From positions 2,524 through 66,523 of the forward strand of contig CALEAC010000027.1 in NCBI GenBank assembly GCA_937944095.1: 64,000 nucleotides of DNA. Reading direction: 5' to 3'. Shown here in pieces: positions 48,074-62,799 of this stretch (positions are counted from its first letter, which is position 1; the number at the start of each line of letters is the position of its first letter). Below the pieces are notes generated by a model. That model searched no databases, was not told where the DNA came from, and saw only the letters and a list, made by a program, of their open reading frames with translations. Made by a program: the position numbers and the translations under genes. This stretch comes from an uncultured Saprospiraceae bacterium. Its GTDB lineage: Bacteria; Bacteroidota; Bacteroidia; Chitinophagales; Saprospiraceae.

Positions 48074-50377
48074 ATGCAGTCGAAGCAGAACTTCCTTAGT
48101 TTTTATCTTATCATTCTTTCTTTCACTTTTTTACCATTTTCTGGACTCTTAGCCCAGGAATCGGTGGGCCAGATTAGAGGACATGTCTATGACATTGCCA
48201 CTGGTGAGCCAATCATTTTTGCCAATGTGGTAATAGATGGCACTAACTATGGCGAGAATACTGACGAGTCGGGCTTATTTACCTTAACCGGTGTACCAGT
48301 AGGTTCTTATGACCTAAGGGTCAGTTATATAGGCTATGAAGATCAAGTAACTCCGATAGAAGTGTCTTCTCGAAAAATCAATTATTACAAAGTCGAAATT
48401 GCTGCTGGTGGTGTCCAATTAGGTGTGGTCGATATATCAGCAGAACGGCAACAAGCTAAGACAGAAGTTCGTATCTCTAAAATCCAAGTATCCCAAAAGC
48501 AAATCAAAGCACTACCTAGTACTGGCGGCGATGCCGATATCGTACAGTATCTACAGATATTACCGGGTGTCATCTCTACGGGAGACCAAGGTGGTCAGTT
48601 ATATATCAGAGGGGGTTCTCCAGTTCAGAATAAGATTCTCTTGGACGGATTGACCATTTATAACCCTTTTCATTCGATCGGATTCTATTCCGCTTTCGAG
48701 ACAGAACTGATACGTAATGTAGATGTCTTAACAGGCGGGTTCAATGCAGAATATGGTGGAAGAATTTCTGCAGTGGTCAACATTAATACTAGAGAAGGTA
48801 ACAAGAAAAGACTGGCAGGACAAGTATCGGTCAGCCCTTTTATGGCCAAAGCAATTATAGAGGCACCTCTGACTAAGCCTGGATCTGGAGGAGATCTGAC
48901 TATGATACTGACAAGTAAGAGGTCTCTAATCGGTTCTACATCTAAGTCATTATACAGTTACGCCGCAGAAGTTGATAGTATCGGTTTACCTTTTGGATTC
49001 CAGGATACCTATGGTAAGATATCATATGTCACTTCTAATGGGAGCAAATTCAATTTCTTTGGCTTTAATTTCGATGATCAATATAAGAATCCACTTGTCT
49101 CTGAAATCGAGTGGAATAACAAGGGTGGCGGTTTAACTTTTGATCTATTGCCTAATGCTAGTGCCTTGACTCTAGATGGGATTATTGGTTATACCCAATA
49201 TGAAGTGGGTATCGTAGAAACAGAAGGTGACCCTCGAAGTAGTCTAATTAGGGAATATGACTTAGGCCTCGATTTTAAGTATCTTACTAATGAGGCTTCT
49301 ATCAAGTACGGTGTCGATATTAAGAGTATCAAAACAATTTTTGACTTCACAAATCCATTTGGGCTGAAGCTTAGTGAAGAGCAGAATACAACAGAAATAT
49401 CTGGATTCTTATCATATCGTAGAGCGTGGGATAATCTGGTAATAGAACCGGGCTTCAGGTTACAGTATTATGCGTCGTTATCAGAATTCTATCCGGAACC
49501 TAGACTAGGTATCAAGTGGAATATCACTGATAAGACGAGACTCAAAGTCGGTGCTGGCTATTATAGTCAGAACATCATCTCTACATCTAACGAAAGAGAT
49601 GTGGTCAATTTGTTCAATGGCTTTCTGACTGGTCCGGAGAAACAATTTCAGGACCTCAACGGCGATCCAGTTACGTCTAAGCTACAGAAAGCAAGACATC
49701 TACTTGCAGGAATAGAACAGGATGTTTCTTCTAGTCTTCAGATTAATGTCGAAGCATATGTAAAAGACTTTTTCCAATTAGTCGTAATAAATCGGAATAA
49801 GACCTCGCCTGGTCAAGCCGATTTCACAACAGAAACTGGTCAGGCATATGGTATCGACTTTTCGGCTAAGTACGAAATACCGAAATGGTATTTCTGGGCA
49901 ACTTATTCATATGGTTTCGTCAATAGATTCGATGGCGAACAGACTTTTCCGACAGTATTCGATCGACGGCATAATGCCAACTTCTTAGCGACTTATTCAT
50001 TAGGCGCTAAGAATGATATCCTCCTGAGCCTACGATGGAATCTAGGGTCTGGGTTTCCATTCACAAAGACCCAAGCTTTCTACGATAATATTCCATTCAG
50101 AGAGGGACCTAATACAGCTTATGAGACTGACAATCAAGACCGTGTAGGCATTATCTATTCTGATACAAGAAATGGAGGCAGATTGCCTTACTACCATAGA
50201 CTAGATCTCTCAGCTCAGAAGACCTTCTATCTTAATGATCGGTTCAATGTAGAGGTGGTTGCTTCTGTTACTAATGCTTATGATAGAGCTAATATCTTCT
50301 ACTTTGATAGGATAAAATATGATAGAGTCAATCAGCTGCCTATTATGCCTTCTGTCTCTGCGAAATTCAATTTCTAG
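48074..50377 (+). CDS. TonB-dependent receptor with N-terminal carboxypeptidase-regulatory-like domain
   Basis: 767 aa with a signal peptide. IRGHVYDIATGEPI...GLFTL (CarboxypepD_reg). Plug segment DIVQYLQILPGV...LYIRGGSPVQNKILLDG. The C-terminal beta-barrel ends in ...SAKFNF. Confidence 0.9.
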   Translation: MQSKQNFLSFYLIILSFTFLPFSGLLAQESVGQIRGHVYDIATGEPIIFANVVIDGTNYGENTDESGLFTLTGVPVGSYDLRVSYIGYEDQVTPIEVSSRKINYYKVEIAAGGVQLGVVDISAERQQAKTEVRISKIQVSQKQIKALPSTGGDADIVQYLQILPGVISTGDQGGQLYIRGGSPVQNKILLDGLTIYNPFHSIGFYSAFETELIRNVDVLTGGFNAEYGGRISAVVNINTREGNKKRLAGQVSVSPFMAKAIIEAPLTKPGSGGDLTMILTSKRSLIGSTSKSLYSYAAEVDSIGLPFGFQDTYGKISYVTSNGSKFNFFGFNFDDQYKNPLVSEIEWNNKGGGLTFDLLPNASALTLDGIIGYTQYEVGIVETEGDPRSSLIREYDLGLDFKYLTNEASIKYGVDIKSIKTIFDFTNPFGLKLSEEQNTTEISGFLSYRRAWDNLVIEPGFRLQYYASLSEFYPEPRLGIKWNITDKTRLKVGAGYYSQNIISTSNERDVVNLFNGFLTGPEKQFQDLNGDPVTSKLQKARHLLAGIEQDVSSSLQINVEAYVKDFFQLVVINRNKTSPGQADFTTETGQAYGIDFSAKYEIPKWYFWATYSYGFVNRFDGEQTFPTVFDRRHNANFLATYSLGAKNDILLSLRWNLGSGFPFTKTQAFYDNIPFREGPNTAYETDNQDRVGIIYSDTRNGGRLPYYHRLDLSAQKTFYLNDRFNVEVVASVTNAYDRANIFYFDRIKYDRVNQLPIMPSVSAKFNF

Positions 50378-51081: not shown

Positions 51082-52119
51082 ATGATAGACTTCTCACAGA
51101 CCCGTATAGGCCCATTATCGATACATCACATAGGACGCATCTCCCATGAAGAATCTTGTCTTACAACAGCCATTCCTCATGAAATCATTGATTCCAGTGT
51201 ACACACCAGTATGTTGGCTTTTCTATTAGCTGGATTCAAAGAGCCTGCTTTCTATCAATTCAGACAAGGCGAAGAGATAGATACCCATTTTATAAAGGCC
51301 CAGATAGATAAAGTCCTGAGCGAAGAGGCACCACTACATGAAATATCTATCTCTATAGCCGAAAAGCTATACAATGACTCCCAGCATCCAGCAATCAAAA
51401 GTGGCGAATTCATGATGTGTCAGCTGACCGATGTCGTCATAGAAGATGAACTAATTGATTGTATCGGTCTCTTTAAGGTAGAGACACGAGATACGTTCAT
51501 CAAAATTTTACAACAGACAGCAGCCTATAATATCAAGACAGACGTGGGGCATGCCCTTAATGGCTTAGACAAAGCTTGTCTCATTCTTAATTCAGATTCT
51601 GAGACTGGTTATAGGGTATTAGTGCGTGATAAAGCCAGTCTTATAGAAGCTCAATTCTGGAAAAGAGGCTTTCTAGATCTTATAGAGAGAGAGGATAGTT
51701 ATCATCAGACCGCTCATTATATTAGCCTAACTAAGGACTTTGTGGAGGACAAACGAAAGAGAGAGGGGAGTATAACTAAGGATGATGAATTAGCCATCAT
51801 GAATAGTTCAGAAGCGTTCTTCTCATCACAAGAGACTTTCGATGAATCTTCTTATCTCGAGAATCTCTTCGAGGATGAATCTATGAAAAATGACTTCAAA
51901 GCTTATAAGAATCAAGTCGAAGCTGCTGGGGAATTCAGTTATGCTAATGACTTCGATATATCAGAGCCAGCTGTCAAAAAGAACAATAAAGTTTTCCGGT
52001 CGATACTTAAGCTCGACAAGAATTTCCATGTGTATATACATGGTGATAAGAATAGAATAGAAAGGGGAGAAGACGACGGTGGCAAATACTATAAACTCTA
52101 TTTCGAAAAGGAGGCATAA
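51082..52119 (+). CDS. nucleoid-associated protein, NdpA/YejK (NA37) family (tentative)
   Basis: 345 aa. The length, the N-terminal ...LSIHHIG pattern and the central AQFWKRGFLDL...YHQTAHYISLTKDFV resemble Bacteroidota NA37 homologues. Confidence 0.55.
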   Translation: MIDFSQTRIGPLSIHHIGRISHEESCLTTAIPHEIIDSSVHTSMLAFLLAGFKEPAFYQFRQGEEIDTHFIKAQIDKVLSEEAPLHEISISIAEKLYNDSQHPAIKSGEFMMCQLTDVVIEDELIDCIGLFKVETRDTFIKILQQTAAYNIKTDVGHALNGLDKACLILNSDSETGYRVLVRDKASLIEAQFWKRGFLDLIEREDSYHQTAHYISLTKDFVEDKRKREGSITKDDELAIMNSSEAFFSSQETFDESSYLENLFEDESMKNDFKAYKNQVEAAGEFSYANDFDISEPAVKKNNKVFRSILKLDKNFHVYIHGDKNRIERGEDDGGKYYKLYFEKEA

Positions 52120-52127
52120 GGACCACT

Positions 52128-53114
52128 CTAACAAAAGTGGAAATAGCTATGAACTGGATTCTGACTCTTAATAACTTCTATAGCTGGTAGTGCAGCAGGC
52201 TGACTGATTGCAATGATTATTTGCGAAGAATTATAGGTGGAAATAAGCTCGACGCTTTGCATAATGATACCATATATCTGGTGACCAACCTTATTGGGAT
52301 TATTGCAGATCCATGTAAACTTTATTTTCTGATCCGATAAATATTTAGCAATTGCCTTTCCTTTTTTGCCACCACCCCAGATGATTAATTTTCGATTTGT
52401 ATCCCTATCAGCATTTAGAAAATGCTTGAGTTTTATGGAGATGAACTTGTTGTCTGCATAATTCGGATCTGTCCTGGATGACCTAGATGAATGATCGCGC
52501 CAGTAGTGCGTGATGCGCGTAACAGGAGTGATTTGCAGCTTGGCAGTTCTAAACCGGAATGCAAGATCATAATCCTCCGGATAGAGCTCTCCAGCAAATG
52601 CTCCAGCTTTCTCAAAATCTGATCGAAGACATAACCAGTTAGGTGAAGGGATCGAACATTCCTTATAGATGTCACTATAATTACTGGCCTCTAGCGTCAT
52701 TGCATTTAACCAATCTTGGTAATGTAGGTAGCCTTCCCCTATTTTATTATCCGAGAAGTATTTGACTATCCCGACAACTAAGTGTCCAGCGCCGGCGTTG
52801 TCTAGAGCACCACACATTAGTTCTAACTTATCGGAGGACATGTAATCATCAGAATCCATCCTGGTTATATACTCTCCTACAGATGCCGCATAGCCAGTCT
52901 GTAAGGCTGGGATGATGCCTTTCCCCTTATTACGAAGGACTACAATTCTATTGTCCTTATAGTCCGATAGAATCTCGTAACTCCGATCTGTAGAGTGATC
53001 ATCTACAGCGAGTAGTTCCCAGTTATCATAGGATTGAGCGATGATAGAATCTAAGCATTCTTCTAGGAATAACGCCGTATTCCTAACAGGCATGATGATG
53101 CTAACTATAGACAT
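52128..53114 (-). CDS. family 2 glycosyltransferase with extra C-terminal glycine-rich (Rossmann-like) domain
   Basis: 328 aa. GT2 N-terminus IIMPVRNTALFLEECLDSIIAQSY, VDDHSTD, and DxD RMDSDD. The last ~100 aa carry KLIIWGGGKKGKAIAKYL. The start overlaps the GtrA stop by 14 nt. Confidence 0.85.
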   Translation of the reverse strand: MSIVSIIMPVRNTALFLEECLDSIIAQSYDNWELLAVDDHSTDRSYEILSDYKDNRIVVLRNKGKGIIPALQTGYAASVGEYITRMDSDDYMSSDKLELMCGALDNAGAGHLVVGIVKYFSDNKIGEGYLHYQDWLNAMTLEASNYSDIYKECSIPSPNWLCLRSDFEKAGAFAGELYPEDYDLAFRFRTAKLQITPVTRITHYWRDHSSRSSRTDPNYADNKFISIKLKHFLNADRDTNRKLIIWGGGKKGKAIAKYLSDQKIKFTWICNNPNKVGHQIYGIIMQSVELISTYNSSQIIIAISQPAALPAIEVIKSQNPVHSYFHFC

Positions 53115-53496
53115 AATATCTGAACAATGGAAAGCTCACGAAAATCCCAATAATAAATGCAATGAACAGCTTAGACACCATATATTGGAAATTAAGAAAC
53201 TCTGTGAAGCAGTATATACCCACCACATTGAGTACCAATATGATGAGGCTCGCGACACCGTACTTTATAGCCTGATAAAACCAGGTTTTGTCTGTTCTCC
53301 TAAATGCCCAGTGCCTTAATACAAGGAATCCGACAACGGCCCCTACACTAGACGCCATAGCTGCTGATACAACGTAATAGATGCCGGCCCATTCTGTCAG
53401 AATATAGAGACTGCTAAAATCAAAAAGAGTCGCCAATGAAGAGCCTAATTGCGATTTGATGAACGACTGTAAGAAAGGTACTTTCTGATCATTCAT
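53101..53496 (-). CDS. GtrA family membrane protein
   Basis: 131 aa with four TM helices and an HWAFRR-type motif (LRHWAFRRTD). Confidence 0.8.
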   Translation of the reverse strand: MNDQKVPFLQSFIKSQLGSSLATLFDFSSLYILTEWAGIYYVVSAAMASSVGAVVGFLVLRHWAFRRTDKTWFYQAIKYGVASLIILVLNVVGIYCFTEFLNFQYMVSKLFIAFIIGIFVSFPLFRYYVYS

Positions 53497-53499
53497 GAT

Positions 53500-53973
53500 C
53501 TAACCGAAAAAATTAGCTTGTAGATAGATGATCAGATGTAAGGAGGCACAAGCGTAGATTCCAGCTAGAACATCATCGAGCATCACGCCCAAGCCGCCTT
53601 TAATATTTTGATCTAGGTATCTAATACCGAAAGGCTTAAGAATATCAAAAAATCTGAAGAGGATAAAGCCAGCCAACATCATCTTGTAAGAGAAAGGTAT
53701 GAGAAGCATAGTGATCATATAGCCGATGAACTCATCTATGACTACTCTAGAAGGATCTTCTCCCCATTCTGCCGTCAATGCATCCGTGCTGATCATACCG
53801 GCGAAGAATAGTACGATAGCAGTTCCTAGAAGAATAAGAGTCGTCGAGCTACCAAAAAAAGTGCAGCTAAGGTAATAGTATAGAACTGCGCCTATTGTCC
53901 CGAATGTTCCAGGGGCAATAGGCGCAAATCCAAGGCCCATAACTGTTGTTATGGCTTTATGTATTGCAGTCAT
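53500..53973 (-). CDS. pgpA: PgpA-family phosphatidylglycerophosphatase A-like phosphatase (candidate phosphatidylinositol-phosphate phosphatase)
   Basis: 157 aa. GLGFAPIAPGTFGT start and DDVLAG near the C-terminus. It abuts the inositol-phosphate synthase stop with a 0-nt gap. Confidence 0.85.
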   Translation of the reverse strand: MTAIHKAITTVMGLGFAPIAPGTFGTIGAVLYYYLSCTFFGSSTTLILLGTAIVLFFAGMISTDALTAEWGEDPSRVVIDEFIGYMITMLLIPFSYKMMLAGFILFRFFDILKPFGIRYLDQNIKGGLGVMLDDVLAGIYACASLHLIIYLQANFFG

Positions 53974-55326
53974 TTACTGCTCATCGTAATCTTGACCTAA
54001 ATGATCTATCAAGTCATGACCACCAATATATCTTAAGGTATTCTCGAGTTTGACAAGCTGCTTGAAAATATCATGTATTGGATGTCTTCCCTTAGGAGCT
54101 TGTGGCGACTTCAGATAGAACCCTAACCATTCTTGGATACCACCCATGCCAGCTCGCTTAGCTAGATCTAAGAAGATCGCAAGGTCTAAAACAATAGGAG
54201 CAGCTAGTATAGAATCTCTACAAAGGAAATCAACTTTAATCTGCATCGGATAATCTAACCAGCCTTTGATATCGATATTGTCCCAGCCTTCCTTATTATC
54301 TCCTCTAGGTGGATAATAGTTGATCCTAACTTTATGATAAAAGTCTTTATATAATTCTGGATATATTTCTGGTTCTAATATTTGTTCTAACACACCCAGC
54401 TTAGATACTTCCTTCGTCTTAAAGTTATCAGGATCATCTAAGACTTCTCCATCTCTATTTCCTAAGATATTAGTAGAGAACCAACCTTCGACACCTAGAG
54501 CTCTTGCTTTGAATCCAGGCGCAAGTATGGTCTTCATTAGTGTCTGACCAGTCTTAAAGTCCTTCCCCGCGATAGGTGTGCTCGTATCTTTGGCAAGTTG
54601 TACTAGTGCTGGAATGTCACATGAAAGGTTAGGTGCCCCATTAGCATAAGGTATACCCATCTTAATAGCTGCATAAGCATAAATCATACTTGGCGCGATT
54701 AATTTGGAATTCCCTTTTAAGCCTTTCTCAAATGCGTCTATTGATTGATGTACAGCGGACTCTTCTATATAAATCTCAGTCGATCCACACCATACCATAA
54801 CGATACGATCACATTTATTATCCTTCTGGAATTTTTTGATGTCAGCCATCACTGCTTTGGCTAGATCCATTTTGGTCTTGCCTTTCTTGACATGGGTACC
54901 ATCTAATTTTTTGACATAGTTTTTGTCAAAAACAGCCTTCATAGGCTTAATCTTAGAAAGTGGTGTTTTGAGTTTTTTTAGTAACTCCGGCTCTAGGACA
55001 TTCGCGTGGACAGCAGCTTCATACATATTGTCTTTGAAGATATCCCAGCCCCCGAATACCACTTTCTTTAGGTCCTGAAGAGGCACGACCTCTTGGATGA
55101 GCGGCTTGTTTTTCTTAGTTGTTCTTTTACCAATCCTAACTCTTCCCATCTGAGTAAGTGAGCCAATAGGATTAGCCAGCCCTTTGTTGACTGCCATGAC
55201 ACCAGCAATAAAGGTCGTTGCAACTGCGCCCATCCCTGGTGTTAGAATCCCTAGTTTGCCCTTAGGGTCTGAGGCAAGAGATTGTGATTTAGCTCTTTTT
55301 TTTGTAGCTGCTTTCCTAGCTTTCAT
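53974..55326 (-). CDS. ino1: myo-inositol-1-phosphate (inositol-3-phosphate) synthase
   Basis: 450 aa. YANGAPN, AGKDFKTGQT and STNILGNRDG motifs of the MIPS family. It has a Lys/Arg-rich N-terminal extension. Confidence 0.92.
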   Translation of the reverse strand: MKARKAATKKRAKSQSLASDPKGKLGILTPGMGAVATTFIAGVMAVNKGLANPIGSLTQMGRVRIGKRTTKKNKPLIQEVVPLQDLKKVVFGGWDIFKDNMYEAAVHANVLEPELLKKLKTPLSKIKPMKAVFDKNYVKKLDGTHVKKGKTKMDLAKAVMADIKKFQKDNKCDRIVMVWCGSTEIYIEESAVHQSIDAFEKGLKGNSKLIAPSMIYAYAAIKMGIPYANGAPNLSCDIPALVQLAKDTSTPIAGKDFKTGQTLMKTILAPGFKARALGVEGWFSTNILGNRDGEVLDDPDNFKTKEVSKLGVLEQILEPEIYPELYKDFYHKVRINYYPPRGDNKEGWDNIDIKGWLDYPMQIKVDFLCRDSILAAPIVLDLAIFLDLAKRAGMGGIQEWLGFYLKSPQAPKGRHPIHDIFKQLVKLENTLRYIGGHDLIDHLGQDYDEQ

Positions 55327-55337
55327 CTATAGTCTTT

Positions 55338-56330
55338 TTATAGTAAGTTATTTTCTTTACACCAAAGAATCGTTTCTGTAAGTCCAGACCTGAGGTCATA
55401 AGCGGGTGCAAAGTTAAAATCTTTTTCCAAGTCCGTGATATCTACTGAAAATGACCTTGCAAAGTATTCTTTAACCTTATTTCTGTTTAGTAAAGGTGTT
55501 TTGCCTTGCAAATTACCCAGAAACTCACTTATAGCTGCAATGAGCTTAATGATACTGAACGGTATTACAATCTGACGTGGCCTCTTACCGAGAATATCCC
55601 CGATAATATTATTCATATCTTCTATAGGATAGGTCCGCCCATCACTAACAAAATAGGCCTTATTGTACACGCGATTAGGAAGAGAATCTATCACTAAGCG
55701 GGCCAAGTCCTTAACGTGGACAAAGCTAGTCTCCATACGACCTCTCCCTATCTTAGTGCCGATACCAGCTTTGATGGTTTTGTAGACAGGAAGCATTTCT
55801 GTATTCCTAGGACCATAGACAGCGGTCGGTCTGAATATAATCGATGGAATCTTGCTAAAATTGGTAATAAATTGTTCTGCTTGTAGTTTGGATTCTCCAT
55901 ACCAAGTTATTGGATGGGGTAGACTATCAGCATCTAGGGTTTGATTCATTTGGTATTCAGCAGGACCATAGGCTGCTAGACTACTGATGTAAACCAACTT
56001 TTGTGGAAGGATGTTTTCTTCGATCAGAATGCGACAGAACTTTCTAGTGTAGCCCGCATTTATCTTGAAGTAGGTTTCTTTGTTTTTGGCAATGGTCACA
56101 CCAGCGTTAAGTACGATATAGTCGAACTGGTGAGCAATCAGTTTCTCTCTTAGGCTGTCCTCTTCCTCGAAACTGTAATACAAAAAATTGATTCTGGGGT
56201 CTGATAGCTTAGCTAAGTCACTGTTTTTCCTGACTCCTGCATACACTAGGTATCCCTGCGCTATGGCTTCTTCTACGACCCAACTACCTACGAAGCCATT
56301 AGCACCTGTGACCAATATTTTTTTTGACAT
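55338..56330 (-). CDS. extended-SDR NAD-dependent epimerase/dehydratase-fold reductase (candidate ceramide/3-ketosphinganine reductase)
   Basis: 330 aa. VTGANGFVGS cofactor motif and catalytic YGESK. The role is assigned from context only. Confidence 0.8.
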   Translation of the reverse strand: MSKKILVTGANGFVGSWVVEEAIAQGYLVYAGVRKNSDLAKLSDPRINFLYYSFEEEDSLREKLIAHQFDYIVLNAGVTIAKNKETYFKINAGYTRKFCRILIEENILPQKLVYISSLAAYGPAEYQMNQTLDADSLPHPITWYGESKLQAEQFITNFSKIPSIIFRPTAVYGPRNTEMLPVYKTIKAGIGTKIGRGRMETSFVHVKDLARLVIDSLPNRVYNKAYFVSDGRTYPIEDMNNIIGDILGKRPRQIVIPFSIIKLIAAISEFLGNLQGKTPLLNRNKVKEYFARSFSVDITDLEKDFNFAPAYDLRSGLTETILWCKENNLL

Positions 56331-56335
56331 AGAGG

Positions 56336-58668
<2,333 letters not shown>

Positions 58669-58673
58669 TTAGA

Positions 58674-59606
58674 TCAACAAATATATGCCATAGCTCTTTG
58701 GTACCATGCAGGACTTCGAGAACCATTTACCCAAGTTTCGGTAAGAAATATACCAATAATCCCGCAACCTATGCCCATTAATACATCAATTAAGTAATGG
58801 TGATTAGTGTAAATGGCTGCAAACCAGATACTTATAAGACTGATTATAAATAAACCACTTAATAATTTATTGCCATATCTCAAACTATAAAAACTAAGGA
58901 TTAATGGGAAAGCAGCGTGCATAGATGGCAATGCCCCAAAGGTATTAGTCCCTTGGCTATACATATTATGATAAATAGGTATCCCAACCATGGCATCGAA
59001 TCGGGCTAGACCTGCAGCTTCACCTGGTGCATTCGTTAGTAATTGCTCCCCATATTGCAAGTAATACCAGGGGGGTGCTGCAGGAAGAACGATGTATATT
59101 ATGAATCCCAAAATATTAGCGATTAGGAAACAGATCCAAAAATCAAAGACCAGTTTCCTTCTTTTTTTGATGAAGGCATAGAGACCAAATAGGATGGGGA
59201 ATGGGGCCCACGTAATGTAGAAGCTGCCAGATATTACATCAAGGGCCGGGTGTATGTGCTGATTAGCATATTCGCATAAAGTGATCTTAGTCCCCTCAGA
59301 TTCGATACCGAATAACTTTAGCTCCCAGTCGTATAAGACCTTATTTAGGATTGTAAAGGGGTTATAGTCATGTAATATTTTCAGTGAGCTATAACAGATT
59401 AGATAGATGAATAGAGGCATAAAGGCTATCCCTAATTGTCGAGTATAGCCACTACTAAAATAGAGGATCAATGCGAGTATGTAGAAACCAACCGCCATCG
59501 AATCCATACCGACGACAAAACCAAACCATAGCAGATATAATAGGGAAAGTCCGATTCCCCAGATCACCCAATTGCTAGCGAATCTGTTAAAGCCAGTTTT
59601 ACTCAT
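58674..59606 (-). CDS. PAP2-superfamily polytopic membrane protein, AUR1-like (candidate inositol-phosphoceramide synthase)
   Basis: 310 aa with about 6-8 TM helices. The lipid-phosphate-phosphatase-like motifs are LPSMHAAFPL and NHHYLIDVLMG. Confidence 0.65.
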   Translation of the reverse strand: MSKTGFNRFASNWVIWGIGLSLLYLLWFGFVVGMDSMAVGFYILALILYFSSGYTRQLGIAFMPLFIYLICYSSLKILHDYNPFTILNKVLYDWELKLFGIESEGTKITLCEYANQHIHPALDVISGSFYITWAPFPILFGLYAFIKKRRKLVFDFWICFLIANILGFIIYIVLPAAPPWYYLQYGEQLLTNAPGEAAGLARFDAMVGIPIYHNMYSQGTNTFGALPSMHAAFPLILSFYSLRYGNKLLSGLFIISLISIWFAAIYTNHHYLIDVLMGIGCGIIGIFLTETWVNGSRSPAWYQRAMAYIC

Positions 59607-59615
59607 ACTTACTGG

Positions 59616-60137
59616 CTAAAATTGAAGTTTTTTATAGAAAGGGAAAGTCTCTTCAACTGTATATCCGAAGAATTCTAAAAATTTCACTTGAGGGAAAGCG
59701 CCGAATTCTTCTGCATATACATAGATGTTAGATAAGACAATCATCTGATCATCTAACTTAGTATATACTCTATAAGTACCAGCGTCATCCTTATTAAGAA
59801 AGAAGTTTTGGTCTGAATAGGCTAGGAATTGAAATTGGTAAGATTCATTATTAATCCGCCAGCTTCGATAACCATAAGCTAAATTAAACTGAATAATATT
59901 CAGTTCTTTTCTGACTTTACCTTCATCATATTTTAACCAATAGACGTCGATTGGTTTGCTTGGATTAGGCAGGCCTGAATCATCGGTATCCAGAGTATAG
60001 ACAATCGTATTGCAGTTGTGATTTCGTTGGATGTAGAATAGTGTATCCACTGCATCTGGTATAGGATAATTCTCAGGGAGGCCTTGCTGGCCAGTATAGC
60101 TAAATTTGTGTTTGATGTTATTAAGATGGTTGAGCAT
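59616..60137 (-). CDS. hypothetical cytoplasmic protein (possibly DUF4833)
   Basis: 173 aa with no signal peptide or TM. LFYIQRNHNCNTIVYTL...PIDVYWLKY resembles what I recall of DUF4833. It is embedded between the two lipid-synthase genes. Confidence 0.5.
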   Translation of the reverse strand: MLNHLNNIKHKFSYTGQQGLPENYPIPDAVDTLFYIQRNHNCNTIVYTLDTDDSGLPNPSKPIDVYWLKYDEGKVRKELNIIQFNLAYGYRSWRINNESYQFQFLAYSDQNFFLNKDDAGTYRVYTKLDDQMIVLSNIYVYAEEFGAFPQVKFLEFFGYTVEETFPFYKKLQF

Positions 60138-60184
60138 ACCCGTTTTTGCTGTAGCAATATTAATACATATAAGCTACTCTGAGG

Positions 60185-60886
60185 TTACTTCTCAGCAGTC
60201 AATTTTGTTCGAGAGAAGGTTAGTCTCCTTATTGCTGTGATATTAGCTCCTATTGCTAAAATGAAGACAGGCCAACTGAAAAACGATATCGTCTCAAATA
60301 AGGGCTGATCTAACCAAGCTACTTTATACTCATAACCACCACCTATCTGGCTAGAAATCACTGCTGTCACCAAACTAGAAATCGCAATAAGTAGGATTCG
60401 TTCGGGCCGTTGCATGATACCGACGCTAGCGGTTACACCTAAGCCTTCTGCACGAGCTCTGGTATAACTGACCATAATCGACCCAATCATCGCTATAAAA
60501 CAAAAGATGGAGGTCATGAGATAGTCCTGCGTAACTGTATAATAACAGAAGCCAAAGAACATGATTAATTCGCTGTATCTGTCAAGTACTGAATCGTAAA
60601 GCGCACCGAATGGATGGGCCGTGCCACTGAGCCTAGCTAGACGACCGTCTACCATATCCATCGCACCTGCAATGAGTATAATAAGGCCAGCATAGCCTAA
60701 GTACTGGTGGTTATTCCGATCACCGACTTCGGCGCCATAGATGAGTAAGACTGTCGAAAGGACATTCAGTAAAAGTCCAAATGAGGTCACCATATTTGGT
60801 GTGATACCTAGTTTCATGAGGACTTTGATAAAAGGGTCCATTAGAGTGTAGGCAAACTGTTGGAGGTTCTCTTTGACTGTGTACAA
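60185..60886 (-). CDS. CDP-alcohol phosphatidyltransferase (candidate phosphatidylinositol-phosphate synthase)
   Basis: DMVDGRLARLSGTAHPFGALYDSVLD fits D-x2-D-G-x2-A-R-x8-G-x3-D-x3-D exactly. The protein is multi-TM. The track start is TTG 60886; an in-frame ATG at 60841 is the alternative. Confidence 0.85.
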   Translation of the reverse strand: MYTVKENLQQFAYTLMDPFIKVLMKLGITPNMVTSFGLLLNVLSTVLLIYGAEVGDRNNHQYLGYAGLIILIAGAMDMVDGRLARLSGTAHPFGALYDSVLDRYSELIMFFGFCYYTVTQDYLMTSIFCFIAMIGSIMVSYTRARAEGLGVTASVGIMQRPERILLIAISSLVTAVISSQIGGGYEYKVAWLDQPLFETISFFSWPVFILAIGANITAIRRLTFSRTKLTAEK

Positions 60887-60911
60887 GTGGATCAGACAAT
60901 TGGTTCAGCCT

Positions 60912-60919
60912 CAAAGCTA
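60912..60919 (-). promoter_or_regulatory. candidate -7 box (TAGCTTTG) upstream of the ten-gene lipid operon
   Basis: Plus-strand caaagcta equals minus-strand TAGCTTTG, a TAnnTTTG match, 25 nt upstream of the TTG start. I saw no clear -33 TTG. Confidence 0.35.
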
Positions 60920-61030: not shown

Positions 61031-62083
61031 ATGCCCAATTCGAAAATAGGGGGCCTCGGTTACTATGTGCCTTCTAATGTATACACGAACCATGATCTGA
61101 CCCAATACATGGATACATCTGATGAGTGGATACAAGAGCGTACTGGTATTGTAGAGAGGCGCTATGCAACAAAGCATAAGGAGACGCCGACGACCATGGG
61201 TGCTGCAGCTGCTCGTATTGCCATAGAACGTGCTGGCATCACTAAGGAGGAGGTCGACTTTATCATCTTTGCGACTCTGAGTCCTGATTATTTTTTTCCA
61301 GGCTGTGGTGTGCTATTACAACGAGAATTAGATATCACTAAGACAGAGATAGGTGCTCTAGATATTAGAAATCAATGTTCTGGATTTATCTATGGTCTTT
61401 CTGTAGCGGACCAATTCATTAAGTCAGGTATGTATAACAATATCCTATTAGTAGGTGCTGAGATGCATTCGATGGGCTTAGATTACTCCACTGCTGGACG
61501 GAATGTGAGTGTGATATTTGGTGATGGAGCTGGTGCTGTCTTGTTGCAAGCGACTGATAAGGAAGAGGGCATCCTCACCACACATCTCCACTCTGATGGG
61601 ACCTATGCAGAGGAGTTGGCCATGATTAACTTTGGTTCTCATGGTGGATATCATGATGATAAAGATTATGGATTCTCGGTAACTGATAAGCCAGGTGGTA
61701 CCTTTGTCACAACTAAGATGGTCGAAGATGGTGCTTATCCGCAAATGAATGGACAGTTGGTATTTAAAAAAGCAATCGTCAAGTTTGTGGAGGTTATCAA
61801 TGAAGCACTAACAAAAACGGGCTTGGAAAAATCAGATATAGATATGTTAATTCCTCATCAAGCCAATCTAAGGATTAGTCAATTTGTGCAGAAGTCTATG
61901 GGTCTATCTGACGATCAGGTCTATAATAACATTCAGAAATATGGAAACACGACAGCCGCATCTATACCGATTGCTCTATGCGAGGCCTGGGAGGCAGGGA
62001 AGATTAACTCAGGCGATTTGGTTTGTCTTGCTGCCTTTGGTAGTGGATTCACATGGGGAAGTACACTTATAAGATGGGCATGA
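61031..62083 (+). CDS. fabH: 3-oxoacyl-ACP synthase III
   Basis: 350 aa. Catalytic Cys NQCSGFIYGL, His IPHQANLRI, and Asn YGNTTAASIP. Confidence 0.92.
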   Translation: MPNSKIGGLGYYVPSNVYTNHDLTQYMDTSDEWIQERTGIVERRYATKHKETPTTMGAAAARIAIERAGITKEEVDFIIFATLSPDYFFPGCGVLLQRELDITKTEIGALDIRNQCSGFIYGLSVADQFIKSGMYNNILLVGAEMHSMGLDYSTAGRNVSVIFGDGAGAVLLQATDKEEGILTTHLHSDGTYAEELAMINFGSHGGYHDDKDYGFSVTDKPGGTFVTTKMVEDGAYPQMNGQLVFKKAIVKFVEVINEALTKTGLEKSDIDMLIPHQANLRISQFVQKSMGLSDDQVYNNIQKYGNTTAASIPIALCEAWEAGKINSGDLVCLAAFGSGFTWGSTLIRWA

Positions 62084-62799
62084 TGAAATTAGATGTAATG
62101 GCAATAGGTGTCCATCCTGATGACGTCGAATTAGGCTGTGGTGGTACAATGCTCAAATTAGTGGCTCAAGGCTATAAAGTAGGTATCGTGGATCTGACTA
62201 AAGGGGAGCTCGGGACCAGAGGGACGGCCCAGACACGTCAGAAAGAAGCAACGAAAGCCCAGAAATACGCTGGTGCAGTCGTCAGAAAGAATCTAGGCAT
62301 GGCCGATGGATTCTTTGAGAATAACGAAAAAAACAGATTGAAGTTGATCAAAGTGATTCGTGATTATCAGCCCGATATCATCCTCGCTAATGCAATCACT
62401 GATAGACATCCGGATCATGGTCGAGCAGCCCAGTTAATCTATGATGCCTGTTTCCTAGCAGGCTTAATTAAGATCAAAACGACCTCGAAGCGCAAGAATC
62501 AAGCAAAGTGGAGACCTCGTAAATTGATGAATTACATCCAAGACCATCATCAGAAGCCAGATATCGTTGTGGATATTTCTGACTTCATGGAGAGGAAGAT
62601 AGAGCTCGTCCAGTGTTTTGATACTCAGTTCTATAAAGCTTCGGCCAAAGGACCTCAGACGCCTATTTCCTCCAAGTCCTTTCTAGATGGTCTTCGCGGC
62701 AGGGCACTAGATTACGGTCGCCGTATAGGTGTCGCATATGGAGAAGGATATACTTGCAAGGAATATATCGGTGTCGACGACATCATGAGTGTACTGTAG
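62080..62799 (+). CDS. bshB1: bacillithiol biosynthesis deacetylase BshB1 (PIG-L family)
   Basis: MMKLDVMAIGVHPDDVELGCGGTMLKL...DLTKGELGTRG. The start is among ATGs at 62074/62080/62083, overlapping the fabH stop. The track's 62053 start is less likely. Confidence 0.85.
   Translation: MMKLDVMAIGVHPDDVELGCGGTMLKLVAQGYKVGIVDLTKGELGTRGTAQTRQKEATKAQKYAGAVVRKNLGMADGFFENNEKNRLKLIKVIRDYQPDIILANAITDRHPDHGRAAQLIYDACFLAGLIKIKTTSKRKNQAKWRPRKLMNYIQDHHQKPDIVVDISDFMERKIELVQCFDTQFYKASAKGPQTPISSKSFLDGLRGRALDYGRRIGVAYGEGYTCKEYIGVDDIMSVL

Follow-up and report, generated by a model that had tools for sequence, protein, structure and literature searches.

Does a single row of genes in an uncultured Saprospiraceae bacterium encode the whole of inositol-phosphoceramide (IPC) synthesis? 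The question is raised by a locus in a 64,000-nucleotide stretch of its DNA (the window), whose ORF list contains ten co-directional, tightly spaced minus-strand ORFs at 52128-60886. Homologues of every known step of IPC synthesis are found in this one gene row (Table 1); the novelty is the arrangement, the enzymes themselves being already known. Judging from sequence, we consider it likely that the locus serves the de novo synthesis of IPC (PI-DHC), with phosphatidylinositol (PI) as an intermediate, in Saprospiraceae-like Bacteroidota.

Table 1. Predicted genes, numbered in their direction of reading, and candidate promoter boxes
Feature	Position	Strand	Basis or remark
g1, phosphatidylinositol-phosphate (PIP) synthase, CDP-alcohol phosphatidyltransferase, BT_1523-like, TTG start	60185..60886	-	PF01066 (CDP-OH_P_transf) 61.5 bits, NF052561, motif
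g2, DUF4833, predicted soluble all-beta protein	59616..60137	-	PF16117 119 bits
g3, AUR1/BT_1522-like IPC (PI-DHC) synthase, PAP2_3, polytopic	58674..59606	-	PF14378 76.7 bits, NF052609, motifs
g4, serine palmitoyltransferase (Spt), CFB type	57457..58656	-	NF047600 SerpalmtaseCFB
g5, bacterial ceramide synthase (bCerS) candidate, tandem GNAT, YghO/CC_1154 family	56336..57460	-	homology, predicted fold
g6, ceramide reductase (CerR) candidate, extended SDR, CC_1164/ECD_02852 type	55338..56330	-	PF01370 98.9 bits, homology
g7, myo-inositol-1-phosphate synthase (MIPS)	53974..55326	-	PF07994 336.8 bits, PF01658 114.2 bits
g8, PgpA-family phosphatase, candidate PIP phosphatase, BT_1525-like	53500..53973	-	PF04608 145 bits
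g9, GtrA-like small membrane protein, BT_1524-like	53101..53496	-	PF04138 57.2 bits
g10, soluble GT2 glycosyltransferase, C-terminal Rossmann-like domain	52128..53114	-	PF00535 110.8 bits; weak PglD_N and CoA_binding matches at residues 240 to 311
fabH (KAS III), divergent context gene	61031..62083	+	367.6 bits vs cutoff 249
TAGCTTTG, candidate Bacteroidota -7-type promoter box for the whole row	60912..60919	-	ends 26 nt 5' of g1 TTG
TATATTTG, candidate internal -7 box in g3 3' end	58678..58685	-	22 nt 5' of spt ATG

The gene row and its recurrence

The spacers computed from the ORF coordinates are, in order, 47, 9, 17, -4, 5, 11, 0, 3, and -14 nt; every spacer is thus at most 47 nt, and two of the nine junctions are overlaps. 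The recomputed coordinates and translations agree exactly with the genes, spacers, and motifs of the original prediction, and profile searches match all ten of its family calls, the 173-residue protein listed there as unknown being DUF4833. Its locus end at 60919 is the start of the promoter box and not of a coding sequence, as the interval 60185-60919 has no clean translation, with stop codons inside, and the first coding sequence begins with the TTG at 60886. This start is supported by ATG-started homologues, which have the same N-terminus at the equivalent position, and by the NF052561 alignment, which begins with residue 5 at model position 2. Hydrophobic-segment prediction indicates polytopic products for g1, g3, g8, and g9, with four segments each in g1 and g9, and no such segment in g2, g5, and g10.

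Many public Saprospiraceae MAGs and metagenome contigs share the fused layout, which takes two gene orders among them. The whole row is found at 40 to 90% protein identity at 9 genome loci and 10 complete metagenome loci, and a second, permuted architecture at at least 13 loci. The conservation of the same order in many independent assemblies argues against an artefact, and the recurrence of the whole row speaks for the linkage being under selection.

As originally predicted, the row is flanked by a divergent fabH. The 3' end of fabH overlaps bshB1 (62053-62799), and the pair adjoins the cluster in Saprospiraceae loci, including two (L015 and L016) where PIP synthase and IPC synthase genes are absent beside spt. 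Since the pair is kept even there, its position reflects conserved synteny and does not imply membership in the pathway.

Predicted ceramide and inositol modules

The g4 protein scores 688.6 bits against the NF047600 model, passing the cutoff of 640, and is 38% identical to the alpha-oxoamine synthase of the Escherichia coli spt cluster. A grouping with BioF or Kbl, named in the original prediction as an outcome that would speak against the proposed system, is not borne out, since both scores are below the cutoff (388.6 versus 426 bits for BioF, 412 versus 460 bits for Kbl) while the CFB Spt equivalog is passed.

The g5 protein is similar to E. coli YghO (31.9% identity across 99% of the length, E value 4e-42), which is encoded within the spt-acpR-epimerase-aasR cluster, and to a Roseomonas homologue (34% identity, E value 4e-65). 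Its AF2 model (pLDDT 88) has a tandem-GNAT fold (Foldseek E value 5e-12). The g6 translation contains the motifs TGANGFVG and YGESK and matches the epimerase/dehydratase encoded in the E. coli spt cluster at 29% identity over 325 residues (E value 3e-39). YghO is listed as the E. coli counterpart of Caulobacter CC_1154, and the YghO/epimerase pair has been equated with CC_1154 (CerS) and CC_1164 (CerR) (PMC9386255), both of which are needed for dihydroceramide (PMC9386255, PMC11324152). In loci whose labels span 10 or more phyla or candidate phyla, the Spt, GNAT, and SDR genes are neighbours, the GNAT gene directly following spt. The homologies support the predicted ceramide module, in which Spt would convert serine and acyl-CoA to 3-ketosphinganine, g5 would N-acylate this product, and g6 would turn it into dihydroceramide by reducing its 3-keto group; in Bacteroidota, acylation may come before or after reduction.

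In parallel, MIPS would form inositol phosphate from glucose-6-phosphate, g1 would join it to CDP-diacylglycerol, and the candidate phosphatase g8 would release PI, from which g3 would move inositol phosphate onto dihydroceramide, each step being assigned from homology. The families of g1, g3, g7, g8, and g9 indicate an inositol module of the Bacteroides type. The top NCBIfam match for g1 is the BT_1523-type model NF052561 (PIPSynBT1523, 286 bits, cutoff 350), with just 33 bits for PgsA, and the sequence DMVDGRLAR-LSGTAHPF-G-ALY-D-SVL-D fits the motif DxxDGxxAR-x8-G-x3-D-x3-D. The g3 protein carries PSMH and HHYLIDVLMG, and its sole NCBIfam match is NF052609 (PhinosDhcerSyn, 252 bits, cutoff 480). 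As both scores are below the equivalog cutoffs, the substrate and head-group specificities are assumed.

The shortfall of g3 would also suit a different role, either with another head group or as a lipid phosphatase, so that the inositol module would stop at PI and ceramide would be used elsewhere. Two related loci (L018 and L019) have a distant PAP2_3-like gene (25% identity) after Spt-GNAT, where the roughly 10 kb to each side yielded none of the inositol genes, and other dihydroceramide head groups are known in Sphingobacterium, namely phospho-mannose and phosphoethanolamine besides an inositol form (PMC4587543). We nevertheless regard such a role as very improbable, given that NF052609 is the only NCBIfam model matched (E value 7e-75 over 274 residues), that the catalytic H/H/D motifs are intact, and that g3 is kept with the MIPS, PIP synthase, and PgpA genes in both architectures. 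The synthesis of IPC as the role of the locus is further suggested by the Spt score above the equivalog cutoff, the BT_1523- and BT_1522-type models as top matches for g1 and g3, the similarity of g5 and g6 to the E. coli pair together with the tandem-GNAT fold, the Spt-GNAT-SDR adjacency, sub-blocks like those of BT_1522-1526, the whole-row conservation, the fitting pattern of membrane and soluble products, and the tight spacing.

DUF4833 would be an accessory of the IPC synthase; its gene is located immediately 5' of the PAP2_3 gene in both architectures. The AF2 model (pLDDT 86) is all-beta, and a structure search with it against the PDB gives no match. A signal peptide is absent from the DUF4833 protein of the window and present in that of the second architecture, and the literature searched contains no mention of the family.

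The 3' end of the row

GtrA had been regarded as part of a novel tail, which does not hold, as the BT_1522-1526 operon already includes the GtrA-like BT_1524, whose deletion lowers IPC and raises PI (PMC8791184). By analogy, g9 would help the PI-to-IPC step, perhaps as a carrier of a lipid substrate through the inner membrane.

The GT2 gene was taken to suggest a possibly glycosylated product; on this reading, g10 would glycosylate the inositol head group of IPC or PI on the cytoplasmic side, and GtrA would flip either the product or a lipid-linked sugar. Consistent with this, g10 has a DSDD (DXD) motif, and GtrA is grouped in Pfam with the DPM synthase membrane domain. The genes g9 and g10 overlap by 14 nt, and their counterparts also overlap at L002 (11 nt) and L004 (4 nt), at just 46 to 51% identity. 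In relatives, the 3' slot holds lipid-tailoring genes such as a DAGK-like lipid kinase, which is commoner there than GT2, making a tailoring role plausible for any gene in this slot, and a fatty-acid hydroxylase gene is inserted elsewhere in the row. However, GT2 follows GtrA at only five loci, all in the window's subclade (the window, L001, L002, L004, and L092), against 12 related loci with a DAGK_cat/YegS_C kinase in its place. GT2 homologues at an equal 50 to 55% identity stand alone in all five contexts sampled from Flavobacteriia and other Bacteroidota, next to neither GtrA nor inositol or sphingolipid genes. Known IPC glycosyltransferases belong to GT32, GT8, and GT64, not to GT2, and the literature searched yielded no bacterial glycosyl-IPC. 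Furthermore, the phenotype of BT_1524 in an operon without a glycosyltransferase already explains GtrA (PMC8791184). We find no good evidence for glycosylation of the lipid and consider a glycosylated end product unlikely; g10, which would be co-transcribed in the window's subclade, is a member of a widespread Bacteroidota family, probably with a role independent of IPC.

The overlap kept at L002 and L004 is left unexplained by a view of GT2 as an unrelated passenger.

Transcription

The predicted -7 box ahead of the first gene, TAGCTTTG, is located at 60919..60912, as a candidate in function. Such a box lies 10 to 60 nt upstream of just 1.6% of the positions in the window, and 8 of 15 related loci show a TAnnTTTG box 22 to 36 nt 5' of their g1 homologue. 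Transcription would most likely start from this box and read through the row, possibly with an additional internal start before spt. The claimed lack of room for internal promoters is not implied by the spacing, because promoters may sit inside the upstream coding sequence, where TATATTTG precedes spt. A single operon without internal promoters is beyond what sequence can show.

The row might instead comprise at least two transcription units, for example PIP synthase-DUF4833-IPC synthase and spt onwards, a division that is compatible with the proposed pathway and that we consider quite possible, if somewhat short of probable. Besides TATATTTG, a box TAACTTTG lies 83 nt 5' of the MIPS gene, and 12 of 20 related loci carry a TAnnTTTG box within 120 nt 5' of spt, against about 4% per locus predicted by the density of such boxes across the window. 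The spt-GNAT spacer is widened to 85 to 170 nt in L005 and L006, and an 845-residue DUF5686 gene splits the modules in the second architecture. Against a division stand the short or overlapping junctions of the window and the non-independence of the related loci counted, and the box recurring before spt, lying within g3, may reflect coding constraints. Terminator-like sites are likewise absent from the spacers, and their count is not significantly above that in shuffles (12 versus 6.5, standard deviation 2.9).

Comparison with known systems

The sub-blocks MIPS-PgpA-GtrA and PIP synthase-IPC synthase match the genetically characterised BT_1522-1526 operon of Bacteroides thetaiotaomicron (PMC9246714, PMC8791184), the order of g7, g8, and g9 being equal to that of BT_1526-1525-1524 (PMC9246714). 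The reduction of 3-ketosphinganine is assigned in B. thetaiotaomicron to BT_0972, a classical SDR (PMC9278070), whereas an extended SDR is found here. The B. thetaiotaomicron Spt, BT_0870, is encoded remote from BT_1522-1526 (PMC9246714), and the three ceramide genes are reported to be non-adjacent in sphingolipid-producing Bacteroidota (PMC11334938). By homology and gene order, the ceramide and inositol modules are joined in one row at the present locus, as originally predicted, an arrangement not described for the model organisms.

Organization and transcription of the gene row

The ten minus-strand genes, numbered g1 to g10 in transcription order, are listed in the table together with their family matches. 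The spacers first proposed between consecutive genes (47, 9, 17, -4, 5, 11, 0, 3, and -14 nt) are identical to those recomputed from the ORF coordinates, and the motifs quoted in the original prediction are found in the translations, being DMVDGRLAR-x8-G-x3-D-x3-D in g1 and PSMH and HHYLIDVLMG in g3. The hydropathy scan fits the expected topology, with g1, g3, g8, and g9 being polytopic and g2, g5, and g10 having no hydrophobic segment. The proposed CDS end at 60919 had to be revised: the translation of 60185-60919 contains internal stop codons, and the coding sequence is placed at a TTG start at 60886. This start appears credible, since homologues starting with ATG have the same N-terminal "..LQQxAYxLxxPFI" at the equivalent position and since the alignment to the BT_1523-type model begins at residue 5.

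Coordinates of the row genes (from the ORF list) and of lipid kinase genes in related loci, with family matches; kinase coordinates are those of the respective locus
Feature	Coordinates	Strand	Pfam match	Other model match
g1, putative PIP synthase (PIPS)	60185-60886	minus	CDP-OH_P_transf	NCBIfam NF052561 PIPSynBT1523, top match, 286 bits, E 2e-85, below 350 equivalog cutoff
g2, DUF4833	59616-60137	minus	DUF4833, 119 bits	NCBIfam none
g3, putative IPC synthase (IPCS)	58674-59606	minus	PAP2_3 PF14378, 76.7 bits, above 27-bit cutoff	NCBIfam NF052609 PhinosDhcerSyn, 252 bits, cutoff 480
g4, Spt	57457-58656	minus	Aminotran_1_2	NCBIfam NF047600 SerpalmtaseCFB, 688.6 bits, above 640 cutoff
g5, GNAT (putative bCerS)	56336-57460	minus	weak GNAT	NCBIfam none
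g6, extended SDR (putative CerR)	55338-56330	minus	PF01370 Epimerase-type extended SDR, 98.9 bits	NCBIfam weak matches only, best HpnA-like, 88 bits, cutoff 368
g7, MIPS	53974-55326	minus	MIPS PF07994, 336.8 bits; PF01658, 114.2 bits	NCBIfam weak only, TIGR03450 mycothiol INO1, 33.6 bits, cutoff 638
g8, PgpA-like	53500-53973	minus	PgpA PF04608, 145 bits	PRK11068 PgpA, 107.6 bits, cutoff 226
g9, GtrA	53101-53496	minus	GtrA_DPMS_TM PF04138, 57.2 bits	NCBIfam none
g10, GT2	52128-53114	minus	GT2; weak Rossmann-like C-terminus	NCBIfam generic GT2 matches, N-terminal part only
Lipid kinase (~298 aa, after GtrA or PgpA), locus L008	8324-9220		DAGK_cat/YegS_C	
Same, locus L011	14352-15251		DAGK_cat/YegS_C	
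Same, locus L013	5625-6512		DAGK_cat/YegS_C	
Same, locus L082	14713-15609		DAGK_cat/YegS_C	
Same, locus L083	10026-10904		DAGK_cat/YegS_C	

A -7-type box (TAGCTTTG, 60919..60912) ends 26 nt upstream of the g1 start; its position is plausible, and it is found again before the g1 homologues in 8 of 15 loci. Window-wide, TAnnTTTG is not enriched on the row strand (20 occurrences, 28 expected). Two further boxes lie within upstream coding sequence, one ending 22 nt before spt and the other 83 nt before the MIPS gene. A box at most 120 nt upstream of spt recurs in 12 of 20 related loci, which we read as only a hint of an internal promoter, since the loci are akin and the box lies inside coding sequence. 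No significant enrichment of terminator-like sites was seen, and none of them lies within a spacer. The sigma-70 promoter scan, giving 30 sites with 32.5 expected, is uninformative for Bacteroidota. Co-transcription of the row from the predicted start at 60919 is likely, and it may not be the sole transcript.

The row is flanked divergently by fabH, as originally described, which overlaps bshB1 by 31 nt (the pair spanning 61031-62799); bshB1 encodes the bacillithiol deacetylase, with a match above cutoff. In Saprospiraceae the two genes stay next to spt, even in two loci (L015 and L016) where the spt-adjacent PIPS and IPCS genes are missing. The possibility that the PIG-L neighbour acts together with the GT2 as a GPI-like GlcNAc-PI deacetylase was rejected, as 62053-62799 encodes BshB1 (288 bits, cutoff 182.5), and its presence beside spt in the two loci lacking PIPS and IPCS also argues against it. 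On the other side, a gene of the nucleoid-associated NA37 family (51082-52128) is convergent with the row and ends 8 nt from the g10 stop, so that any row terminator must lie within neighbouring coding sequence. A weak hairpin with a T-run is located near the g10 end, at 52043..52026.

Ceramide and inositol modules and the proposed pathway

The original prediction had asked whether g4 groups with BioF or Kbl. It does not, with the Spt model being above its cutoff and the NCBIfam models for Kbl, BioF, and ALAS each under their own; g4 shares 38% identity with the E. coli alpha-oxoamine synthase. The g5 protein has no match among PDB sequences and NCBIfam models. A tblastn search of plasmid records aligns it to E. 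coli YghO (31.9% identity, 99% of g5 covered, E 4e-42), given as the counterpart of CC_1154 (PMC9386255), where CC_1154 is cerS and CC_1164 is cerR (PMC11324152). The E. coli locus is ordered LptF-LptG, then alpha-oxoamine synthase-ACP-epimerase/dehydratase-fatty acyl-AMP ligase, then yghO, and the epimerase of this spt cluster (ECD_02852 equivalent) matches g6 with 29% identity over 325 aa (E 3e-39). A Roseomonas homologue of g5 (34% identity, E 4e-65) is neighboured by LptF/G paralogues, an NTP transferase, a DAG-kinase-family gene, and a CDP-alcohol transferase. In its AlphaFold model (pLDDT 88), g5 folds as a tandem GNAT, for which Foldseek (E down to 5e-12) indicates resemblance to glucosamine N-acetyltransferase, MshD, N-myristoyltransferase, and FemX. 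The contiguous genes g4, g5, and g6, joined at -4 nt and 5 nt, are taken as putative Spt, bCerS, and CerR homologues, the Caulobacter link running via E. coli YghO and its neighbouring epimerase.

The E. coli record carrying the yghO/spt cluster, the non-mobilizable 353-kb "plasmid unnamed" (NZ_MG591698.1), also contains lptF/lptG and the glc operon, and is apparently a piece of chromosome submitted under a plasmid label.

Among the inositol genes, g1 has the complete DX2DGX2AR...GX3DX3D motif and is BT_1523-type at the family level, the equivalog cutoff not being reached. For g3, NF052609 is the sole NCBIfam match and the catalytic His/His/Asp motifs are present. The g8 gene lies directly downstream of the MIPS gene and is a candidate PIP phosphatase, and g9 follows PgpA in the same position as BT_1524.

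Based on these homologies, Spt would make 3-ketosphinganine, which bCerS would N-acylate and CerR would reduce to dihydroceramide. MIPS, the PIP synthase, and the PgpA-like phosphatase would provide phosphatidylinositol (PI), from which the PAP2_3 enzyme would move inositol phosphate onto dihydroceramide, the product being inositol-phosphoryl-dihydroceramide (IPC); GtrA may assist this transfer, with DUF4833 as a putative accessory protein. Acylation before reduction is the Caulobacter model (PMC11087976). In Bacteroidota either step may come first; there, the classical-SDR 3-ketosphinganine reductase BT_0972 reduces free 3-ketosphinganine (PMC9278070).

Recurrence of the fused cluster and the DUF4833 family

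The closest relatives of g5 are found in Saprospiraceae MAGs, and an ENA metagenome contig (L001) contains the exact window Spt sequence. We searched the 80 genome loci retrieved with g5 by tblastn with the ten window proteins. The full g1-g10 order is found in L002 and L004, g1-g9 in L003, L005, L006, and L008-L011, a truncated or partial row in L007, L012, L013, L022, and L026, and g4-g5-g6 alone in other Saprospiraceae (L014-L017). In other loci, labelled Ignavibacteria, Nitrospirota, Bdellovibrionales, Myxococcaceae, Zixiibacteriota, and Verrucomicrobiota, among others, the homologues of Spt and g5 are direct neighbours in that order, and a g6-like SDR usually lies alongside; Spt/GNAT/SDR adjacency extends over loci whose labels cover at least 10 phyla or candidate phyla. 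Clusters of this type have been described (PMC11334938).

A metagenome survey, consisting of a scan with the DUF4833 alignment followed by tblastn, yielded ten further complete copies of the window architecture and a second architecture (13 loci and 3 partial ones), with the order (PIPS)-MIPS-PgpA-GtrA-[845-aa DUF5686 protein]-Spt-GNAT-SDR-DUF4833-PAP2_3. The proposed synteny check thus recovers the fused ceramide/inositol layout in genome and metagenome loci and in two gene orders. The presence of both architectures in many loci indicates that the fusion of the two modules is recurrent and under selection rather than a one-off arrangement.

The loci with the second architecture (L132, L139, L141, L144, and L151-L170; e.g., L141 1013-9414) come from metagenome lineages; their 845-aa protein is a CarboxypepD_reg/DUF5686 protein, and their GNAT is just 27-32% identical to g5. 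The TonB-receptor-like gene at 48074-50377 was considered as a counterpart of the BT_1527-like protein seen close to inositol clusters, and this was not supported; its product has the N-terminal CarboxypepD_reg domain alone in common with the DUF5686 protein.

The near-identical L001 contig has 99-100% protein identity to the window across g1-g5, then 95, 92, and 87% at g8, g9, and g10, and 94-97% in the next genes, and another strain contig has the reverse pattern to L001 (GT2 98%, DUF4833 90%), a picture resembling mosaicism or recombination confined to the GtrA-GT2 end (52128-53973). In the cultured Saprospiraceae species Aureispira anguillae, the 122-kb plasmid pAUEa (NZ_AP026868.1, 4320-8149; locus L171) encodes a trio of SDR, Spt-like aminotransferase, and GNAT, the GNAT being 33% identical to g5, which hints that the ceramide module is mobile. 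A contig labelled as a Deltaproteobacteria MAG (L021) has an Spt and a GNAT 72% and 51% identical to those of the window, far above other proteobacterial loci, which points either to mis-binning of a Bacteroidota contig or to a recent transfer. Some relatives include a fatty-acid hydroxylase family gene (PF04116) in the cluster (L022 7182-7796; L096 ~8489; L112 ~8522; L108 ~5591), located after DUF4833 and before IPCS in L096 and L112, and between PIPS and IPCS in L022, where no DUF4833 was detected. This insertion is probably a hydroxylating tailoring step.

The g2 protein matches no PDB entry by sequence or by fold, its predicted model (pLDDT 86) being all-beta, and the DUF4833 family is not mentioned in the searched literature. 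In both architectures DUF4833 immediately precedes the PAP2_3 gene, except that the hydroxylase gene separates them in L096 and L112, and this pairing in two gene orders makes it a candidate by association with the IPC synthase. All second-architecture DUF4833 proteins (L132-L170) have an N-terminal signal-peptide-like hydrophobic stretch, whereas those of the window clade (59616-60137 in the window) have no signal peptide and a hydrophilic, disordered N-terminus, so members of the family appear to sit in different compartments. A third group (L110, L116, L117, and L145; e.g., L116 7959-11620) has no sphingolipid or inositol genes nearby. It is flanked by pyrG and a TrmH-like gene on one side and by an OM-like 250-aa protein, a Kdo transferase (PF04413), and a PfkB kinase on the other, which is an LPS-core context. 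The signal-peptide difference and this third group complicate a simple reading of DUF4833 as an IPC synthase partner; the theme common to its contexts is envelope-lipid assembly.

The GT2 gene and comparison with known systems

The original prediction described a GtrA/GT2 tail in a candidate (glycosyl)IPC system. GtrA is already present in the known Bacteroides operon as BT_1524 (PMC8791184), where the BT1524 mutant has decreased IPC and increased PI (Sartorio et al. 2022, PMC8791184), so the window GtrA is part of the known module rather than a novel glycosylation tail, and the locus strengthens the case for GtrA as a component of the pathway.

Only the window, L001, L002, L004, and L092 have GT2 after GtrA, with contigs of matching length implying two further linked cases. 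The slot after GtrA contains a DAGK_cat/YegS_C lipid kinase in twelve related loci (L008, L011, L013, L082, L083, L094-L096, L098, L104, L112, and L113), suggesting that these lineages make a phosphorylated sphingolipid or PI derivative, and a YitT-family gene in L009. No DAGK-like kinase or fatty-acid hydroxylase homologue was found elsewhere in the window. The g10 family is large (1666 matches at E <= 1e-10); its homologues in the Flavobacteriia Vicingus and Allomuricauda are 50-55% identical, the same as the cluster-linked copies, and those outside the cluster are stand-alone in all five contexts sampled, having no GtrA, inositol, or sphingolipid neighbour. Similarity to DPM synthase or ArnC is confined to the first ~110 residues of g10, and the weak PDB match to the DPM synthase 5mlz (E 5.5e-5) to the N-terminal 100 aa. 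The narrow linkage, the other genes in the slot, and the stand-alone homologues speak against the glycosyl-IPC reading, and g10 is probably just transcribed along with the row, its function being independent of IPC.

We consider it unlikely that in this Saprospiraceae subclade the soluble GT2, through translational coupling with GtrA, adds a sugar to the inositol head group of PI or IPC and that DUF4833 is a new obligatory partner of the IPC synthase. Head-group glycosylation is retained at this low level on account of the conserved GtrA-GT2 start-stop overlap, which still needs explaining. If true, this would be the first bacterial glycosyl-inositol-phosphoceramide, with the whole precursor supply in one 8.8-kb operon; the searched literature contains no description of bacterial glycosyl-IPC.

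An AUR1-like PAP2_3 enzyme and a glycosyltransferase gene in one locus invite analogy with the fungal and plant conversion of IPC to MIPC/GIPC, in which the glycosyltransferases acting after AUR1 belong to GT32, GT8, or GT64. The window enzyme is instead a soluble GT2 from a family widespread without sphingolipid genes, homology to the eukaryotic IPC glycosyltransferases is neither seen nor expected, and g10 is not co-inherited with the IPC synthase in the manner of an IPC-dedicated glycosyltransferase. The mycobacterial PI/PIM pathway (Ino1, PIP synthase, PIP phosphatase, and PimA) makes PI in two steps through PIP, as predicted for the window. PimA is a GT4 and g10 a GT2, and the window has no acyltransferase or further mannosyltransferases, with the acceptor lipid predicted to be ceramide and not diacylglycerol alone. 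In PIM synthesis, a cytoplasmic glycosyltransferase acts on PI (PMC4587543). The GtrA/GtrB/GtrV and DPM-synthase-type polyprenyl-phosphate systems resemble the window in having a GtrA-family membrane protein beside a GT2. However, g10 has no transmembrane segment, a Rossmann-like C-terminus replacing the membrane part, and no GT-C/GtrV-type transferase was found among the ten genes or their neighbours, so the pairing of a membrane-anchored GT2 with a periplasmic GT-C transferase is not seen here. GtrA is also present without any glycosyltransferase in the B. thetaiotaomicron operon.

The enzyme families are all known already and no new biochemistry is involved; the novelty is that Spt, a YghO-type ceramide synthase, and a CerR-type reductase occur together in this Bacteroidota lineage, fused to the inositol head-group genes. 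Such loci are already in public MAGs, unremarked, and neither an spt-linked inositol cluster nor Saprospiraceae sphingolipids are described in the searched literature. The three ceramide genes were reported not to be clustered in Bacteroidota (PMC11334938), and the locus is evidence that some Bacteroidota do cluster them, which bears on whether this phylum uses the Caulobacter-type bCerS/CerR or a eukaryote-like route. It predicts inositol sphingolipids, so far linked mainly with host-associated Bacteroidota, in Saprospiraceae, which are common in activated sludge, marine, and freshwater samples. The compact 8-9 kb cassette also offers a testable means of reconstituting bacterial IPC synthesis in a heterologous host.

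The ceramide cluster of Caulobacter crescentus and E. coli BL21 (spt, acpR, cerR CC_1164, aasR, and cerS CC_1154 = YghO) is, like g4-g6, a single locus, and its E. coli version encodes full-length homologues of g4, g5, and g6 (38%, 32%, and 29% identity). Unlike that cluster, the window has no dedicated ACP, acyl-ACP synthetase, or LptF/G paralogue; acyl-CoA is the substrate of CFB-type Spts (PMC11324152). The head group is predicted to be inositol phosphate in the window, whereas it is of the phosphoglycerate type in Caulobacter.

The B. thetaiotaomicron operon comprises BT_1526 (MIPS), BT_1525 (PgpA-like PIP phosphatase), BT_1524 (GtrA motif), BT_1523 (PIP synthase), and BT_1522 (PI-DHC synthase, PI-DHC being IPC), with the SPT gene BT_0870 elsewhere in the genome (PMC9246714). 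All five gene families of BT_1522-BT_1526 (Heaver 2022, PMC9246714; Sartorio 2022, PMC8791184) are also present in the window, although g1 and g3 do not reach the NCBIfam equivalog cutoffs, which derive from the B. thetaiotaomicron proteins. The two clusters have the sub-orders MIPS-PgpA-GtrA and PIPS-then-IPCS in common, whereas in the window the two sub-blocks are permuted, the Spt-bCerS-CerR trio is inserted between them, DUF4833 lies between PIPS and IPCS, and GT2 is appended.
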